DNA of 7,817 bases from a virus (lineage: Duplodnaviria > Heunggongvirae > Uroviricota > Caudoviricetes), in the IMG/VR virus record IMGVR_UViG_2541047945_000007; one strand, written 5' to 3'. A model generated the notes under the pieces. It searched no databases. It saw only the letters and a list, made by a program, of their open reading frames with translations, and had not been told where the DNA came from. Positions 235 through 7,817 of this stretch are shown in pieces. A program made the position numbers and the translations under genes. Each line of letters starts with the position of its first letter. The first letter of the stretch is position 1.

Positions 235-379
235 GTATGAAGATATTCAGCAGCCTGCGCAACAACAGACACAACAAGCAACATCTGGCGGTCAAACATT
301 TCGAGAAGGTATGACCGCGAAAAATCCTAAAACTGGTCAGAAAATTATTTACAGGAACGGACAATGGCAACCAATGTAG
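235..379 (+). pseudogene. 3' remnant (47 codons) of a virion gene truncated by the IS insertion; by synteny a P22 gene 20-like ejection protein
   Basis: Frame 2 is open from the first base after the IS end (236) to TAG at 377..379, giving YEDIQQPAQQQTQQATSGGQTFREGMTAKNPKTGQKIIYRNGQWQPM*. It has no start codon of its own and its stop overlaps the next gene start by 16 nt, as in tightly packed late operons. Identity of the gene is inference from position only. Confidence 0.45.
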
Positions 380-2487
380 GTTTACCAGAGGGATTTGTTC
401 TGGATGAACAGCCTGATAACTCACAGCTTCCTGATGGCTTTGTGCTTGATGCCCAACCAGAACAGCAGCAATCTCCTTTGGTTTCACCAGAGGAAAATTC
501 CAGACAGGAAAATGTTGTTAATAATGCTAACGGTTTCGACCGTTTTATGTATGGCGTTCTCAGTGGATTGATGGATGTTGGTAAAGGTGTTGGTCTATTT
601 CAGGATATGACACCAGAAGAGCAAGCCGCAATTCAGTCTCTACAGCAGAAGTTAGCGGCAAAACCATCAACCGTACAAGATGTTGGTGAGTTCGTTGGAC
701 AAGCAGCACCATTTGTTAGTGGTGGTGGGATTATTTCTCAGGTTCCGAAAGGGGCGGCAAGGCTGGCTGCCGCCGCAGGGCTTGGTGCTGGAGAAGGGGC
801 TATTGTAGCCAATGGAACAAATAGCGATGTTGCTTCTGGAGCTGCTATTGGCGCTGTGGCTGGCCCTGTAGCAGAGATTGTTGGTCCAGCTCTTGGGAAG
901 ATTGCAGGAAAAATTAAAAATAGTGCCGGAGATATTTATCGCTCATCCGTAGGGATGGGTAGTAAATCATCTAAAGCAACGTTAAAGAAAGCTGCTGGCG
1001 CAATGGACAATAAATTTATCGGCGGGCAACGAGCTATTCAAGATTTCGCCGATGAAGTTAATCCTGATTTTAACGCGATAAATGCTATTCGTGAGCTAGA
1101 ACTGGAAAATTATGCCACTCCAGGCATGATCTCTAATAATCCTGCTGTCAGGGCTCTTGATAATGCAGTGGCAAGTCTCCCTGGAACAGAGATTAGTGAG
1201 GCGCATAAGCGTTTTATTACTGAATTAGGAAGAAAAGCTGATGAAATGATAACTTCATTTGGGGGAAGCCTTGATAAGCAACTGGTTTCTGACAGGCTTG
1301 CAGATAATTTTGATAAAACCATTTCATCATTACAAAATCAGTCAGATAACATCTACAACAAAATTGCCGAAAAGGTTCCTGTAAGAGACCGGATTGAGGC
1401 AACTAATACATTGAATTTTTTAGAGGATTTTGCTGATGATATAGGTGGAATTGATGAATTATCTCCAATAATGAAGCGGACATTGAACCGACTTGATCCA
1501 AACACCTTGCCAACGTATGGGCGTTTAGATCTCGCTAGAAAGCAGGTTGGGCAAGCTATTGGCAAAGGCTCTGGCCCATTCAAGGATGAAGAAACAGGTG
1601 TTCTTAAAAAGTTATATGCGGCTATAACAGATGACCAACAGGCTGTCGCAGAAAAATATGGCGCAGGGGAGTTATGGACGCTTGGTAAGGAGTTGGTAAA
1701 AACACGAAAATCCATTGAAGATGATGCCGTAACCGTTTTGGGTAGAAAACTTCAGCAATCAGCAATTCCAAAAGTTGAAAGTGCCGTTGTTAATATGGCA
1801 AAAGGAAACGGTGGTGACTTTAGGCAATTAATGAAGTCAATTCCAAAGGATATGCGGCAGGAAGTTGCGCTCACCTCAATGAATAAAGCATTTACCAGCT
1901 ATGCTAAATCACCAGGTCAGCAATTAGGGGTTGATGGATTTGTAAAATGGTATAACGGAATGTCACGCAATGGGGCCAATATGAAGGCTCTCCGTGATGC
2001 TATTGGCACAGATGCATCAAAGCGCCTTGATACGATTTATCAAGCAGCTAAGGCTATGAATAGACTCAATACTGGTAAGCAGTATGCTAGTAGTCTTGTG
2101 GATCAGCAAGTTAATAACTTTCTGAAAGAAAAGGGTAGTCTCGCAAAAATTTATGGAATAGCCTCAAAAGCTGCTGCGGCGGAAGGTATTACAAGCTTAT
2201 CTGGTCTTCCTGGTGTAGGTGCAACAGGGGTGATAACGTCAGCATTGATGTCAGGGAAAACAAGCAGGATAAAGGCTGCTGATGCTCTACTGTCTTCTCC
2301 TGAGTTTAAATCAATGCTATTTCGCCTGCAAAACGCACCTGTAGACAGAGCAGAAGTGAGACGCGTAATAGAAAGGAAACTGATGCAATCTGGGGCATTT
2401 AAGAGATGGGAGAAAACCTTATCAACAGATGAAGCAAAAACCATTGCCCGCACGGGGATTATTACATGGCTCGCTAGTGACAGTTAG
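364..2487 (+). CDS. Internal virion / DNA ejection protein (707 aa); P22 gene 16-like by position
   Basis: 2124-nt ORF; SD AGGAA at 353..357, 6 nt before ATG 364. N-terminal acidic tandem peptide repeat (LPEGFVLDEQP / LPDGFVLDAQP), a long Gly/Ala-rich hydrophobic segment (about aa 107-184), then a long predicted alpha-helical region. It lies immediately upstream of the immI region, as gene 16 does in P22. Functional assignment is from synteny and composition, not recognised sequence identity. Confidence 0.8.
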   Translation: MATNVGLPEGFVLDEQPDNSQLPDGFVLDAQPEQQQSPLVSPEENSRQENVVNNANGFDRFMYGVLSGLMDVGKGVGLFQDMTPEEQAAIQSLQQKLAAKPSTVQDVGEFVGQAAPFVSGGGIISQVPKGAARLAAAAGLGAGEGAIVANGTNSDVASGAAIGAVAGPVAEIVGPALGKIAGKIKNSAGDIYRSSVGMGSKSSKATLKKAAGAMDNKFIGGQRAIQDFADEVNPDFNAINAIRELELENYATPGMISNNPAVRALDNAVASLPGTEISEAHKRFITELGRKADEMITSFGGSLDKQLVSDRLADNFDKTISSLQNQSDNIYNKIAEKVPVRDRIEATNTLNFLEDFADDIGGIDELSPIMKRTLNRLDPNTLPTYGRLDLARKQVGQAIGKGSGPFKDEETGVLKKLYAAITDDQQAVAEKYGAGELWTLGKELVKTRKSIEDDAVTVLGRKLQQSAIPKVESAVVNMAKGNGGDFRQLMKSIPKDMRQEVALTSMNKAFTSYAKSPGQQLGVDGFVKWYNGMSRNGANMKALRDAIGTDASKRLDTIYQAAKAMNRLNTGKQYASSLVDQQVNNFLKEKGSLAKIYGIASKAAAAEGITSLSGLPGVGATGVITSALMSGKTSRIKAADALLSSPEFKSMLFRLQNAPVDRAEVRRVIERKLMQSGAFKRWEKTLSTDEAKTIARTGIITWLASDS

Positions 2488-2838: not shown

Positions 2839-3387
2839 TTAGTGTAATCTCTGATCGTCTGAATCGTGTAAGAACTCCATGAGACTTTGAACCGGAATTG
2901 GTTCTATTGATGATAATGTGAACACAGGAATATTGAGACTTTTGCAACGCTCAAACACTCCCTTATCATGAGTCCATACCTCGTCAGCATTAATTGCTCT
3001 TGCAATTGCTATTATTTGTCTGTCAAACTTAATTTTGTTTGCTGTACCTTCTGTGCTAATTTTCCTTAATTCTTTTAATGTTGGTATCGATGCGCATTCA
3101 ATAGCAGCCAACTCATCAAATGATACAGTTTCGAAGCACGATAACGATTTGATAACATTCAGTTTTTCTTGTTGGTAATCTTTATGGATTCCAACTAAAA
3201 ACTCCGCCAATACAGGAGTTGGAACGATGATTGTCCCGTTCTTGTTATCTATTCGATCAACAAGAGCTTCTGCTCTTCTTTTGGCATCTGGAATCTCAGA
3301 ACCAAGTATAGGGTCAGATAATCTATAATCGTGTTCTATATCTGATAGTAGGTATACCAGAATATTGGTATCTAAAATTACTCGCAA
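2839..3387 (-). CDS. PIN-domain nuclease, VapC-like (182 aa)
   Basis: N-terminus MRVILDTNILVY is the canonical PIN start. The four conserved acidic positions are present in the expected motifs: D6 (ILDTN), E62 (PVLAEF), D122 (KFDRQIIAIA) and D141 (WTHDKGVFER, matching the VapC T-x-x-D...FER C-terminal motif). Start is TTG at 3387..3385 preceded by a good SD (GAGGAA, 7-nt spacer); there is no in-frame ATG. The start overlaps the upstream gene's stop by 10 nt, indicating translational coupling. Confidence 0.8.
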   Translation of the reverse strand: MRVILDTNILVYLLSDIEHDYRLSDPILGSEIPDAKRRAEALVDRIDNKNGTIIVPTPVLAEFLVGIHKDYQQEKLNVIKSLSCFETVSFDELAAIECASIPTLKELRKISTEGTANKIKFDRQIIAIARAINADEVWTHDKGVFERCKSLNIPVFTLSSIEPIPVQSLMEFLHDSDDQRLH

Positions 3388-4097
3388 TTTATCTTCCTCA
3401 GAGTCCTAAGGATTGAATCAACATCGCGTTCCTCGGACCACTGATCTCCAGGAACTTGCTTGATAGCATTAATAGCATCCTTGAGTGATGATTTTTTGAG
3501 CAATACAAATGAAGTTATTTTTAGTTTCTTTAGCTCCCATTTGTTGTTCTTTTTTTCCCAGCACCCATCTCCTTTAACCCTAATATATTTGAATAGATGG
3601 GACCCAAGAGCTGCCGCCAAATCAGGGGTTGCCTCGCACTTGAATGTTTCACCGTTGGCTCCCTCAATACGCACAGGTATTGAGTTGTCTTTTCCGCCAA
3701 CACTGTATAGCCTTCCTTGAACTTCTGACGTTTTTGTTATGAGTAAAGGGATTGGCTCCTTTTTTACTCGCGGGAATGCGATAATGGTTGAGTGGTTTCG
3801 TCCGAGTAGTTTCGCTGAAAAACCATCATGCTCCAGTAAATTAACAATTTTTTGATACGCGGGTGATTTCTCTTTGGCTGAGAGAGAGGCCCTTGCTATG
3901 ACAGCGTTATAACAAATATCATTATCGACCCATGCATTTAAGTCAGCCGATCCTTCACTTACACAGTCGAAGTGAACAGAATCTGCAGAACCGTATAGAT
4001 CTACGAGAGCAGACATATACTTGACCAACTTAGCCATTGACAGCTGGCCAGGGGTGGTTCCGTCAAGTTTTAATGTGAGTCCATTGCTTTTTTTCAT
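3378..4097 (-). CDS. Hypothetical protein (239 aa), upstream partner of the PIN nuclease; no recognisable domain
   Basis: 720-nt minus-strand ORF starting 49 bp downstream of the mnt stop; AT-rich like the PIN gene; ends ...LRKINCE* with its TAA inside the PIN start region. No Walker, HTH or other motif I can identify. The SD is weak (GTGATGACAA then ATG). Confidence 0.7.
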   Translation of the reverse strand: MKKSNGLTLKLDGTTPGQLSMAKLVKYMSALVDLYGSADSVHFDCVSEGSADLNAWVDNDICYNAVIARASLSAKEKSPAYQKIVNLLEHDGFSAKLLGRNHSTIIAFPRVKKEPIPLLITKTSEVQGRLYSVGGKDNSIPVRIEGANGETFKCEATPDLAAALGSHLFKYIRVKGDGCWEKKNNKWELKKLKITSFVLLKKSSLKDAINAIKQVPGDQWSEERDVDSILRTLRKINCE

Positions 4098-4146: not shown

Positions 4147-4401
4147 CTATAACTTACTTTTGCTATAAATATTTTTCAGCGTTTCAAAGACCATCTTCTT
4201 AACAACGTCAGATTGCTCATCCGCGACTCGCTCAGCTTCGTCTCGATAGCCTACAATTGATGATGGCTTTGAGAGAGCATCCTGAACGATTTGTAATAAC
4301 TCAGAGTTCATTGACCTTCCGTTAGCCTCTGCTCTTAATTTCAATTTTTCTCTTACTTCCAAAGGCATACGGAAGTTAAAGTGCGGATCGTCTCTAGCCA
4401 T
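4147..4401 (-). CDS. mnt: Mnt repressor (ribbon-helix-helix), maintenance-of-lysogeny repressor of the immI region
   Basis: Translation MARDDPHFNFRMPLEVREKLKLRAEANGRSMNSELLQIVQDALSKPS... is nearly identical to P22 Mnt as I recall it. Divergent from arc, with the P22-type operators between them. Confidence 0.93.
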   Translation of the reverse strand: MARDDPHFNFRMPLEVREKLKLRAEANGRSMNSELLQIVQDALSKPSSIVGYRDEAERVADEQSDVVKKMVFETLKNIYSKSKL

Positions 4402-4423
4402 GCCATCACCCCAAGTTAGTGTA

Positions 4424-4452
4424 TTGACATGATAGAAGCACTCTACTATATT
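4424..4452 (+). promoter_or_regulatory. Pant-like sigma70 promoter (-35 TTGACA 4424..4429, 17-bp spacer, -10 TATATT 4447..4452)
   Basis: Consensus -35, 17-nt spacer and near-consensus -10 read directly from the sequence; location and arrangement match P22 Pant. Confidence 0.7.
4429..4449. promoter_or_regulatory. Arc operator (Oarc): ATGATAGAAGCACTCTACTAT
   Basis: The 21-bp sequence matches the P22 arc operator as I remember it from the Arc-operator structural literature, with TAGA/TCTA half-sites; it lies in the Pant spacer and overlaps the Pmnt -10. Confidence 0.7.
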
Positions 4453-4457
4453 CTCAA
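4429..4457 (-). promoter_or_regulatory. Pmnt-like divergent promoter (minus strand: -35 TTGAGA at 4457..4452, 17-bp spacer, -10 TATCAT at 4434..4429)
   Basis: Read on the reverse complement. Overlaps Pant back-to-back, as described for P22 immI. Confidence 0.55.
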
Positions 4458-4477
4458 TAGGTCCACCGTGGACCTAT
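4457..4477. promoter_or_regulatory. Mnt operator (Omnt): perfect 21-bp palindrome ATAGGTCCACCGTGGACCTAT centred on 4467
   Basis: Perfect dyad symmetry verified base by base; it lies just downstream of the Pant -10 (covering the expected transcription start), where Mnt represses ant in P22. Confidence 0.75.
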
Positions 4478-4491
4478 ATTGTGAGGTAAAT

Positions 4492-4650
4492 ATGAAAGGA
4501 ATGAGCAAAATGCCGCAGTTCAATTTGCGGTGGCCTAAAGAAGTATTGGATTTGGTGCGCAAGGTAGCTGAAGAGAACGGGCGATCTGTTAACTCTGAGA
4601 TTTATAAGCGAGTGATGGACAGCCTGAAGAGAGAGGGGATAACGGTATGA
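4492..4650 (+). CDS. arc: Arc repressor (ribbon-helix-helix), 52 aa
   Basis: [52 protein letters not shown] is near-identical to P22 Arc as I recall it. SD GAGG 7 nt upstream of ATG 4492. The longer ORF-track start at 4429 is rejected because it would cover the promoter and operators. Confidence 0.93.
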   Translation: MKGMSKMPQFNLRWPKEVLDLVRKVAEENGRSVNSEIYKRVMDSLKREGITV

Positions 4651-4868
4651 AGTTTATTGAGGTTGATGAGATTGGCTATGAGAATGCACTTGGTAGAGGT
4701 AAATCTTTAGTTAACGTTAATGGCATTGAGTCGATAAGGAGCGGTGAATTTACGGAGATCAGAATGATGTCAGGTGGAATCATTCCTTGCCGTGATTCAG
4801 TAGAGTCAATCAAAGCAAGAATGAGTGGTCAGTGGCTTTATAACTACAGTGACTTACAAAAACAGTGA
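4647..4868 (+). CDS. Hypothetical protein (73 aa) inserted between arc and ant
   Basis: ATG overlaps the arc stop (ATGA at 4647..4650); strong SD GAGAGGGG at 4628..4635. Nothing of this size lies between arc and ant in P22 as I recall it. No recognisable motif. Confidence 0.55.
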
Positions 4869-4930
4869 AGCCCCAACTGCGGGAACAGTCAGGGCTTCGG
4901 TTGTCAGTAAATCCGTGGAGAAAAACCAAC
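4857..4930 (-). ncRNA. Possible sar-like small antisense RNA covering the ant ribosome-binding site
   Basis: Minus-strand candidate promoter inside the ant start (-10 TATACT at 4942..4937, weak -35 TGTTCA 16 bp upstream) would start transcription near 4930, antisense to the ant SD (4917..4920). A minus-strand intrinsic-terminator-like hairpin (outer stem 4867..4873 with 4892..4898, inner stem 4876..4879 with 4886..4889) is followed on the minus strand by ACTGTTTTTG. The implied length of about 70 nt is comparable to P22 sar. This is inference only. Confidence 0.3.
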
Positions 4931-5833
4931 ATGAATAGTATAGCAATTTTAGAAGCAGTGAACACCTCTTACGTGCCTTTCAATGGTCAGCAAATTATCA
5001 CCGCCATGGCTGCCGGAGTTGCATATGTTGCGATGAAGCCAATCGTTGAAAACCTTGGAATGAGCTGGTCAACGCAGCAAACAAAACTCATGAAGCAGAT
5101 TAGCAAATTCAACTGTGTTCATATGAACATGGTTGCCGCTGATGGTAAGCTTCGTAAGCTACTCTGCCTTCCTTTGAAGAAGTTAAATGGATGGCTGTTC
5201 AGCATCAACCCTGAGAAAGTTCGTGCTGACATCCGCGATAAACTGATTCAGTACCAGGAAGAATGCTTTACTGTGCTGCATGACTACTGGACGAAGGGAA
5301 AGGCAGAAAATGCACGTAAGAAAACATCTGTTGATGACAGGACTCCGCTTCGTGATGCTGTAAATATGCTAGTCAGCAAAAAGCATCTAATGTACCCAGA
5401 AGCTTATGCAATGATTCATCAGCGTTTCAATGTGGAAAGTATTGAAGAGCTTGATGCATCTCAGATACCGCAAGCTGTAGAGTACATCCACAGGGTAGTG
5501 CTTGAAGGTGAGTTCATCGGCAAACAAGAGAAGAAAACCAACGAGCTTTCTGCAAAAGAAGCAAACAGCCTTGTATGGTTATGGGATTATGCCAACCGCT
5601 CACAGGCATTATTCCGCGAACTGTATCCGGCGCTAAAACAAATTCAATCGAACTATTCCGGCAGATGTCATGACTGCGGTTATGAGTTCTCCCGTATTAT
5701 CGATATGGCGAGAGATGTTTTAATCAACCATACACGAGATGTTGATATTAATGAGCCAGACGGACCAACGAATCTTTCCGCATGGATGAGACTTAAGAAT
5801 AAAGAATTACCTCCTTCAGTACATAACTACTGA
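4931..5833 (+). CDS. ant: Antirepressor Ant (300 aa from ATG 4931; the ORF track's GTG at 4865 is a less likely start)
   Basis: N-terminus [24 protein letters not shown]... matches the P22 antirepressor as I recall it; GGAG at 4917..4920 precedes ATG 4931; the position downstream of arc matches P22. The extension from 4865 would span the hairpin and overlap the upstream ORF. Confidence 0.88.
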
Positions 5834-6011: not shown

Positions 6012-7817
6012 ATGACAGACATTATACCTAACATTATAGTTTCCATGCCTAATCAATTGTTCACAATGTCAAGAACATTTAAATCAGTATCGAATGGAAG
6101 CATTTATATCGGGAAGCCTGATACCGATCCGACTAATCCAGATAATCAAGTGGATGTTTATTTTGAGAATGAGAATGGAAAATATATTAAGGTTTCTCAA
6201 CCAATAAAAATAAGTCAAGCTGGACAACCTGTATTGAATGGTCAATTCGGTAAGTTTGCGACTATAAAAAATCACTCAATGGCGATTTTTGATGCGTATG
6301 GCTCTCAGCAGCACTATTTCCCAAATGTAATGAAATATGCTCCAGATCAGTTAAGGCAGGAATTAACAAATTTTTCTGGTGAAAATTCTCCTGGTTATGC
6401 TGACCCAAGTAATACGGTATGGGGAATTGATGCATTTTCTTCTAATGAATATGCGAAAAATAATGCTTTTTTCGGAGTTGGAGCAGGATCATCAATTATA
6501 GGTAACGAGTCAGATGAGGCTGTTGGTGCGGAAAATACTGGTATTGGTAGACGAGCCGGTGCAAGCCTTACAACAGGACAGCGCAATGTTCTACTTGGAC
6601 ATGAGGCTGGAGCACTGTTAACTACAGGTAGTTGTAATATTTTTATTTACGCTCAAAGTTCTTCTTATGCCAACTATAAAACCGGTAGTTATAATGTAGT
6701 GGTTGGTTATAACGCTGGCAAACTATTAACATCAGGAGAGAGAAATGTTTCAGTTGGTACGGATGCTGGGTCACGAACAACAACAGGAAGAGATAACGTT
6801 GCTGTCGGTCAAGCAGCAATGCAAAATAACTCAACTGGTGGTGGTAATACCTATATAGGAGCATTCTCTGGTGCTGAGACGGGAACTGGCGGTAATAATC
6901 TTGCTGCAGGTCGCTCTGCCTTATTTAGAAATGTGGATGGTTCTGGAAACGTTGCACTAGGACGTGAGGCTTCTCTTGGTTTGTCTTCATATGGGGAATC
7001 TCCCAATAATATTGTTGCTATAGGGTATCAAGCTGCATGGTCACAGAATGGATTAAATGGTGTTGTTTTTTGTGGGATGCAAGCAGGATATAAAGCAACA
7101 AAAATGAATGATTCAGTTCTTATTGGTAGGGCTTCCGGCTTTAATTTAACAACAGGAAGTGATAATGTTTTTGTTGGTGCAGCGTCAGGAGATAGTGAGA
7201 CTACTGGAACCCAATTAGTATATCTTGGACATCAAGCTGGTAGGTTTTTGATTGATGGGACACCTGCAAAAGAGAAATTAAATTGTGTAGCTTTAGGCTG
7301 CCGTGCCAGAGTTGGTGGAGATCATGAGATTCAGTTAGGAAATTCTTCTCAGACAGTTTATGTATATGGTACGGTGCAAACTCGGTCTGATGAGCGTGAT
7401 AAAGCAGATAAACGAATAATAGACGGAGAACTTGCTGTATCATTCGTCCGTGGAATAATCCCATATTTTTATAAGTGGGATTTTCGTGATGATTATATAG
7501 AAGAATACAATGTAAAAATTGGTGATGATTCTAATGGCAATCCGATTTTTGAAACTAGAATTCATCAACATGAAAAAGATGGCAGTAGAAAAAGGAAAAG
7601 AGAACATGCCGGGTATCTTGCACAGCAAGTTAAAGAATTACTTGATCGACTTGGAATTGACTGTGGTATATATCAAGATCATCTAGTAAACAATGGATGC
7701 GATGTAAAAACAATTGCCTACGAACAGGTTATACCGTTTGTTACAAAGGCTATAGATGTTGCATTTTCAAGGATAGAGGGGTTAGAGCAAAGATTGAACA
7801 AACTCGAAAACCTATAA
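6012..7817 (+). CDS. Tailspike / tail fibre protein (601 aa): P22-type N-terminal head-binding domain, Gly-rich repeat shaft, C-terminal intramolecular chaperone domain
   Basis: The first ~115 aa (MTDIIPNIIVSMPNQLFTMSRTFKSVSNGSIYIGKPDTDPTNPDNQ...HSMAIFDAYGSQQHYFPNVMKYAPDQ) align closely with the P22 gp9 head-binding domain as I recall it. GGAG at 6000..6003 precedes ATG 6012. The C-terminus contains SDERDK (S459 to K464) followed by about 140 aa including HAGYLAQQVKELL, typical of the S74-type self-cleaving chaperone of phage fibres. Complete ORF with TAA at 7815..7817. Confidence 0.93.
   Translation: MTDIIPNIIVSMPNQLFTMSRTFKSVSNGSIYIGKPDTDPTNPDNQVDVYFENENGKYIKVSQPIKISQAGQPVLNGQFGKFATIKNHSMAIFDAYGSQQHYFPNVMKYAPDQLRQELTNFSGENSPGYADPSNTVWGIDAFSSNEYAKNNAFFGVGAGSSIIGNESDEAVGAENTGIGRRAGASLTTGQRNVLLGHEAGALLTTGSCNIFIYAQSSSYANYKTGSYNVVVGYNAGKLLTSGERNVSVGTDAGSRTTTGRDNVAVGQAAMQNNSTGGGNTYIGAFSGAETGTGGNNLAAGRSALFRNVDGSGNVALGREASLGLSSYGESPNNIVAIGYQAAWSQNGLNGVVFCGMQAGYKATKMNDSVLIGRASGFNLTTGSDNVFVGAASGDSETTGTQLVYLGHQAGRFLIDGTPAKEKLNCVALGCRARVGGDHEIQLGNSSQTVYVYGTVQTRSDERDKADKRIIDGELAVSFVRGIIPYFYKWDFRDDYIEEYNVKIGDDSNGNPIFETRIHQHEKDGSRKRKREHAGYLAQQVKELLDRLGIDCGIYQDHLVNNGCDVKTIAYEQVIPFVTKAIDVAFSRIEGLEQRLNKLENL
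6459..7346 (+). repeat. Degenerate periodic coding repeat in the tailspike (about 14 units of 17-18 aa, consensus roughly G-x-x-AG-x-x-L-TTG-x-x-NV-x-x-G)
   Basis: Units read from the translation include RRAGASLTTGQRNVLLG, HEAGALLTTGSCNIFIY, YNAGKLLTSGERNVSVG, TDAGSRTTTGRDNVAVG, RASGFNLTTGSDNVFVG and AASGDSETTGTQLVYLG. The periodicity is at the protein level; the DNA units are diverged and not identical tandem repeats. Confidence 0.6.

Follow-up and report, generated by a model that had tools for sequence, protein, structure and literature searches.

The window, by which we mean the whole 7,817-nucleotide stretch of viral DNA analysed here (IMG/VR record IMGVR_UViG_2541047945_000007), is the immI ("ant moron") region of a P22-like (Lederbergvirus) Escherichia coli prophage, a podovirus. 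Matches to Pfam and PHROGs, a promoter scan and RefSeq annotation together give the gene order mnt, Pmnt/Pant, arc, orf73, sar, ant and tailspike (Table 1). The Pant and Pmnt hexamers (4424..4457) are the same as those at the annotated P22 promoters, and Pant converges on the sar promoter, Psar, at a separation of 485 bp in the window as compared with 276 bp in P22. The tailspike gene, whose stop codon coincides exactly with the end of the window, encodes a P22-type N-terminal head-binding domain and a C-terminal Peptidase_S74 (endosialidase-chaperone) domain, whereas the receptor-binding part of the P22 tailspike is different. The place taken in P22 by sieA and orf59a is held in the window by the PIN-domain gene and the phrog_19868 gene, which overlap by 10 nt. 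PADLOC returned no match for this pair, which is possibly a moron, a toxin-antitoxin pair or an exclusion pair.

Table 1. Features of the window, with the strand and the evidence on which each was placed
Feature	Position	Strand	Basis
DNA-transfer-like protein	364..2487	+	Pfam/PHROGs; intact 707-aa ORF in the window
PIN-domain protein, 182 aa	2839..3387	-	Pfam/PHROGs
239-aa protein, phrog_19868	3378..4097	-	PHROGs
mnt repressor gene, 84 aa	4147..4401	-	Pfam Arc and Repressor_Mnt
Pant	4424..4452	+	TTGACA-17-TATATT, promoter scan
Pmnt, overlapping and divergent from Pant	4457..4429	-	Promoter scan
arc, 52 aa	4492..4650	+	Pfam Arc 1.8e-27, RefSeq annotation, alignment
orf73, 73 aa, between arc and sar	4647..4868	+	phrog_11805, E 4.5e-52
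Predicted sar antisense RNA, about 70-73 nt	4858..4930	-	Rfam RF00262, epsilon34 identity, fold
sar 3' tail, ACUG-UUUUU (U-tract 4862..4858)	4858..4866	-	Sequence, terminator scan
Stem-loop II, predicted intrinsic terminator hairpin, 14 bp, loop UCCC	4867..4898	-	Terminator scan, fold
Stem-loop I, 6-bp stem GUUGGU/ACUGAC, 16-nt loop	4903..4930	-	Rfam consensus, ViennaRNA
sar target: ant SD GGAG (4917..4920), 10-nt spacer, ATG (4931..4933)	4917..4933	+	Sequence
ant antirepressor gene, 300 aa	4931..5833	+	P22_AR_N 2.8e-45, P22_AR_C 2.3e-28, PHROG 245 anti-repressor Ant
Predicted Psar extended -10, TGCTATACT, ant codons 3-5	4945..4937	-	Identical to the annotated P22/epsilon34 Psar -10 end
Predicted Psar -35-like hexamer GTGTTC, 17-bp spacer	4960..4965	-	Position of the annotated P22 Psar -35 end
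Tailspike, head-binding N terminus	6012..7817	+	Pfam/PHROGs

RF00262, the Rfam sar model, is the sole Rfam family above threshold in the window. It matches the minus strand at 4930..4864 with 87.7 bits (E 4.7e-18), untruncated over model positions 1-68 of 68 and at twice the cutoff (gathering score 43). The initial annotation of this DNA had proposed a sar-like RNA mirroring P22 sar opposite the ant ribosome-binding site, and the proposal is borne out: the region aligns base for base with the annotated sar RNA, sar terminator and Psar of P22 (BK000583) and epsilon34 (EU570103), and it is cis-antisense to the leader and ribosome-binding site of ant in an mnt-arc-ant immI region. A permissive Rfam scan surfaced one further match on the same bases, to ctRNA_pGA1 (RF00236), at 26.9 bits against a gathering score of 45 (E 0.042). 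It was taken as chance; that family operates in plasmid replication control, whereas the site here belongs to the immI region of a prophage.

Judged by the annotations of P22 and epsilon34, in both of which the start corresponds to 4930, the transcript would begin at G4930, the base adjoining the complement of the ant AUG, and would end within the U-run 4862..4858, giving the length in Table 1. The known sar RNA is 68/69 nt long, and a length of about 68-70 nt is expected of the family. Folded with ViennaRNA, the predicted RNA has a free energy of -29.4 kcal/mol (z = -5.05, with 0 of 200 shuffles as good), and its minimum free energy and centroid structures both equal the Rfam consensus of two stem-loops. 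This z score and the Rfam E value place the sar ensemble far beyond chance. Stem-loop I, which is weak and 28 nt long, is joined by an AACC spacer to the strong 32-nt hairpin of stem-loop II, and its loop holds the anti-Shine-Dalgarno sequence CUCC at sar nt 11-14. The hairpin, identical to that of epsilon34, corresponds to the annotated "sar terminator" of P22 and comprises a lower tier of seven Watson-Crick pairs (five G-C and two A-U), two G.U wobbles that follow, a 5-bp upper tier and the 4-nt loop, so that its 14 bp include three G.U pairs. Both stem-loops are stabler on the minus strand than on the plus strand (-4.3 versus -0.8 kcal/mol for stem-loop I; -21.9 kcal/mol, z -5.83, versus -16.0 kcal/mol, z -3.76, for the hairpin) because the three G.U pairs turn into A.C mismatches on the plus strand.

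A two-tier hairpin followed by TTTTT, about 70 nt downstream of the -10-like sequence, had been noticed from the letters alone, and both elements are where they were placed. The hairpin occupies 4898..4867, the U-run makes up nt 69-73 counted from the predicted start, with a G next, and four nucleotides (ACUG) separate the U-tract from the stem. This tail passes a simple terminator rule that the P22 tail, AACUUUACG, fails. A scan of the window for terminator-like sites gave two matches as compared with 0.5 expected. The second match is inside arc (4530..4513, minus strand), with a 5-bp stem, an 8-nt loop and a T-rich tail; it also exists in P22 (positions 731..714 of our P22 sequence, L001) and would be downstream of sar on the same strand. 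It may be a chance match.

The minus-strand TATACT that had been reported in the first codons of ant is present at 4942..4937, in codons 3-4 (AGT ATA), and is preceded by TGC. The annotated P22 Psar -10 falls at the same place, as the alignment with the P22 sar region confirmed. Relative to the annotated P22 Psar a single -35 base differs, outside the RNA (GTGTTC in the window, GTGTTA at L001 952..957 in P22), and relative to the annotated epsilon34 Psar the window is identical. The predicted promoter thus lies within the first ant codons and is directed away from ant, toward Pant. A generic sigma-70 scan of the window did not call Psar because its -35, GTGTTC, is weak, being a poor match to TTGACA, and the call rests instead on homology to the annotated promoters. 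The extended -10 sequence, TGNTATACT, was dropped as stand-alone evidence since it is within chance expectation, with one match as compared with 0.25 expected and at least one match in 44 of 200 shuffles. Between the -10 and the predicted start, the minus strand reads CAT (4933..4931), the complement of the ant start codon. The suggestion that promoter and terminator bracket the Shine-Dalgarno sequence and start codon of ant therefore holds in that both are bracketed and the GGAG is inside the predicted transcript, but the AUG, between the -10 and +1, would not be complementary to sar if transcription starts at 4930.

It is very probable that 4858..4965 on the minus strand is a sar gene with the mechanism of its P22 counterpart, in which translation is blocked when sar pairs with the ant leader. 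A P22-like mechanism is by far the most likely because the RNA core is identical to that of epsilon34 and two loop bases away from that of P22. Psar, with its weak -35 and extended -10 in ant codons 3-12, would start transcription at G4930 and read toward arc, and the 14-bp hairpin and U-run would end the transcript after about 70-73 nt. Loop I would expose CUCC, the anti-Shine-Dalgarno sequence. Complementarity between the RNA and the orf73-ant intercistronic leader, the ant Shine-Dalgarno sequence included, is perfect, and by homology with P22 the RNA would pair with ant mRNA, occlude the ribosome-binding site and limit antirepressor synthesis. By analogy we infer that the sar of the window is transcribed, that it has the ends given above and that it represses Ant.

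The P22 sar RNA is said to have been described by Liao et al. and Wu et al. in 1987 and by Schaefer and McClure in 1997. The first of these reports is said to have found that convergent transcription from Pant silences Psar in cis, and both 1987 reports reportedly found Psar active once Pant is repressed and Psar mutants overproducing antirepressor late in infection. On this account, most sar would be produced after Arc or Mnt has shut Pant off, and it would mop up residual ant mRNA. In P22, sar is documented to act post-transcriptionally, blocking the synthesis of Ant by pairing with the ribosome-binding site of ant (PMC10732415, PMC7968456, PMC11016777), and sar reads have been detected by small-RNA sequencing of a P22 infection (PMC13397905). 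The locus called there as "sar" (P22J-sar) is 104 nt (PMC13397905, Table 2); its start lies 6 nt upstream of the annotated +1 and its end about 30 nt beyond the terminator, in arc, which suggests some read-through or imprecise locus calling. Its extent bears on how far transcripts of the sar type reach into the upstream gene.

The divergence of the window from P22 sets in precisely at the hairpin's 3' foot. The window shares with vB_EcoP-611R6 and vB_SemP_Emek (Emek) a module, made up of a variant arc 3' end and the 222-bp orf73, that replaces the arc 3' end and sar 3' tail of P22. The joining of this module at the hairpin foot has three consequences: (i) the sar tail changes from the P22 form to ACUGUUUUUG; (ii) the orf73 stop codon (TGA, 4866..4868) overlaps the foot by 2 nt; and (iii) the U-tract is encoded by the last codons of orf73, CAA AAA CAG, ahead of the TGA, so that the tail is complementary to these codons and to T4866, the first base of the stop. 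The initial annotation took the terminator to be displaced into the 3' end of the extra ORF. It has not moved, the hairpin-to-ATG distance being 32 nt as in P22; it is the DNA on its far side that has been replaced by the orf73 module. The predicted sar overlaps only the extreme 3' end of orf73, by 8-11 nt (the stop codon and the last two or three sense codons). In P22, arc ends 2 nt inside the annotated sar 3' end, its stop codon overlapping the RNA, and overlap with the end of the upstream gene is therefore the normal state and not new. The last 15 or so codons of arc in the window (4590..4650, plus strand) differ from those of P22 and epsilon34, in which arc ends in QRVMESFKKEGRIGA before the stop; the variant arc 3' end travels with orf73, which puts a mosaic joint inside arc.

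The ATG of orf73 overlaps the arc stop codon (ATGA), an arrangement by which orf73 is predicted to be translationally coupled to arc. The sequence evidence favours a real gene: all eight DNA alleles have the frame open, as does a 60%-identical relative that has an 11-residue insertion and keeps the same arc-overlapping start and hairpin-overlapping stop, and orf73 is annotated as hypothetical in vB_EcoP-611R6, Emek and RefSeq E. coli. The family is narrow (eight clusters, with E. coli and Salmonella as the only named sources); there are no matches in Pfam or PADLOC and no relatives in a one-genome-per-species collection. An AF2 model of moderate quality (pLDDT 78.8; other models, 41-62) has five strands followed by two short helices. 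A Foldseek search of the PDB with this model gave nothing with E <= 0.001, and BFVD yielded only borderline matches, with a best E of 1.1e-3 and TM about 0.7, the targets being small phage proteins that carry the label "flagellar and swarming motility protein" (FlbD/SwrD-like).

The relatives compared, all encoding orf73 homologues, were 16 loci from IMG/VR, one Logan contig and the records of the phages 611R6 and Emek. Across the 24 related sequences examined the hairpin is almost unchanged, with substitutions confined to the loop except for one change of G.U to A-U in L022. In contrast, the 32 nt between hairpin and ant, together with the ant allele, fall into at least five sequence types (A-E), and each leader-specific sar type is attached to a different ant allele, stem-loop I varying and the hairpin being common to all (L004, L006-L022). 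All five types keep TGnTAnnCT at the same position in ant codons 3-5, including in the divergent ant alleles that read TGCTACACT, TGCTAAGCT and TGTTAAACT. They also build a 5-8-bp stem I from different sequences, with a pyrimidine-rich anti-Shine-Dalgarno in loop I, and have the same overall fold (-27 to -32 kcal/mol), with Rfam sar scores of 60-98 bits, above the cutoff. Both the hairpin and the -10 are thus conserved in relatives. A full-length MAFFT alignment of the sar variants put stem I out of register and was set aside in favour of Rfam alignments, individual folds and an alignment trimmed to stem I. In the trimmed alignment 97.9% of cells are paired, as compared with 71% or less in slid controls, a figure that slightly understates the pairing because type B is one column off at two pairs. 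Two of the six stem pairs are changed on both sides, and the observed covariation score was reached by 4 of 500 shuffles; with a sample this small, made up of related sequences, we regard the covariation as supporting rather than decisive. Given the high identity to P22 and epsilon34, conservation within type A mostly reflects shared ancestry and is not independent evidence.

These variants provide natural compensatory-mutation support for stem-loop I and for a promoter inside ant. The hairpin has a mosaic joint at either foot, which suggests that it provides the shared homology for module recombination. The invariant hairpin may be the joint at which arc/orf73 modules are reassorted with at least five "specificity" modules, each made up of a sar 5' domain and an ant allele. 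The existence of several leader-specific sar variants that share one terminator hairpin is a mildly useful by-product of the comparison.

Positions 4400..5100 of the window are 100% identical to several E. coli chromosomes and, from position 668 onward, the entire window equals NZ_CP091756 (E. coli LC-1302-2020). In that chromosome an IS3-family insertion at exactly window 667/668 cuts the DNA-transfer-like gene short, and downstream of tailspike there is an IS2; the immI region there is in a degraded prophage, and its circuit may be a remnant. The insertion elements and the truncated gene would suit the view that sar is an inherited relic, intact in sequence and without a regulatory role here, either in a defective prophage or beside an ant that is never expressed, and the near-identity to epsilon34 could likewise reflect recent transfer rather than selection. 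We consider this very unlikely, because in the window itself mnt, arc, orf73, ant, tailspike and the DNA-transfer-like ORF are all intact, and the same orf73-sar junction occurs in viable phages (611R6 and Emek) and in the 51 complete E. coli genomes in which orf73 is also present. A 299-nt query covering orf73 and sar (4647..4945) has matches in 438 of 5426 complete E. coli genomes; among the rows sampled, many of the partial matches consist of the 80-nt sar part only.

The hairpin might also serve mainly on the plus strand, as an attenuator, a terminator or an mRNA-stabilising structure that ends arc-orf73, with TATACT a chance occurrence and no antisense RNA made. The plus-strand hairpin is still stable at the energy given above and stands exactly at the orf73 stop codon, and the extended -10 taken alone is within chance, but no T-run follows the hairpin on that strand, the terminator scan called no plus-strand terminator, and the three G.U pairs give the minus-strand stem an advantage of 6 kcal/mol. 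Neither the retention of TGnTAnnCT and of a compensated stem I across divergent ant alleles nor the identity of the homologous P22 element, an RNA characterised by experiment according to annotations and the literature, fits this explanation, which we hold to be extremely improbable. A small protein-coding ORF as the source of the minus-strand signal (4854..4946, 30 aa, or 4810..4965, 51 aa) can be dismissed: both are in the mechanical ORF list, but their TTG and GTG starts are upstream of the predicted +1 (4930), both are antisense to ant and orf73, and a structured RNA family with compensatory changes fully explains the region.

It is doubtful that orf73 is a third protein gene of immI tied physically to sar, with the orf73 stop and last codons serving as the terminator foot and U-tract, and an effect of sar on orf73, through processing of the duplex or an interplay between ribosomes and the hairpin, seems unlikely. 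If such coupling were true, the sar-mRNA duplex would begin at the orf73 stop codon and, besides blocking ant translation, could determine where the arc-orf73 message ends and how stable it is, either directly or through processing by a double-strand-specific RNase. Ribosomes finishing orf73 could, in turn, open the target hairpin and modulate sar pairing.

The sar of the window is a known RNA family in a known context; our literature search found no paper naming RF00262. The arc-orf73-sar-ant arrangement is likewise already in published phage genomes, in which sar is unannotated, and RefSeq and several phage records leave the RNA unannotated too. The P22 sar/ant safety circuit appears to be present unchanged in E. 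coli prophages, and little is added here beyond annotation.

The features marked in the P22 record (BK000583) include a sar misc_RNA ending one base before the ant ATG, a sar terminator and, inside ant, a promoter for sar; all of these are marked in the epsilon34 record as well. As in P22, the predicted antisense RNA of the window is directly upstream of the ant AUG, covers the ant Shine-Dalgarno sequence and has two stem-loops, the extended -10 is in ant codons 3-5 and the hairpin-to-ATG distance is the same. Over the first 64 nt of sar the two differ by only two changes, both in loops (nt 16 A>C and nt 48 A>C). The differences are that the 3' tail is not shared, that the upstream neighbour of sar is arc in P22 and orf73 in the window, and that the host is Salmonella for P22 and E. 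coli for the window. Epsilon34, in which the misc_RNA and Psar are annotated, is 100% identical to the window over 4867..4965, from the hairpin foot through the -35, but lacks orf73 and has the P22-type tail. Phages vB_EcoP-611R6 and vB_SemP_Emek have the same arc 3' end, orf73, hairpin and 3' tail as the window, with sar unannotated in both records. The former also has the same sar 5' domain and Psar, whereas in Emek, whose sar is of type D (61.7 bits), the same hairpin is joined to another leader and another ant allele. The CA RNA of N15 and the OOP RNA of lambda, phage antisense RNAs acting on antirepressor or lysis-lysogeny genes, are also short structured RNAs that lower the expression of switch genes (PMC10732415, PMC5415839), but they have no sequence or structural homology to the sar of the window.
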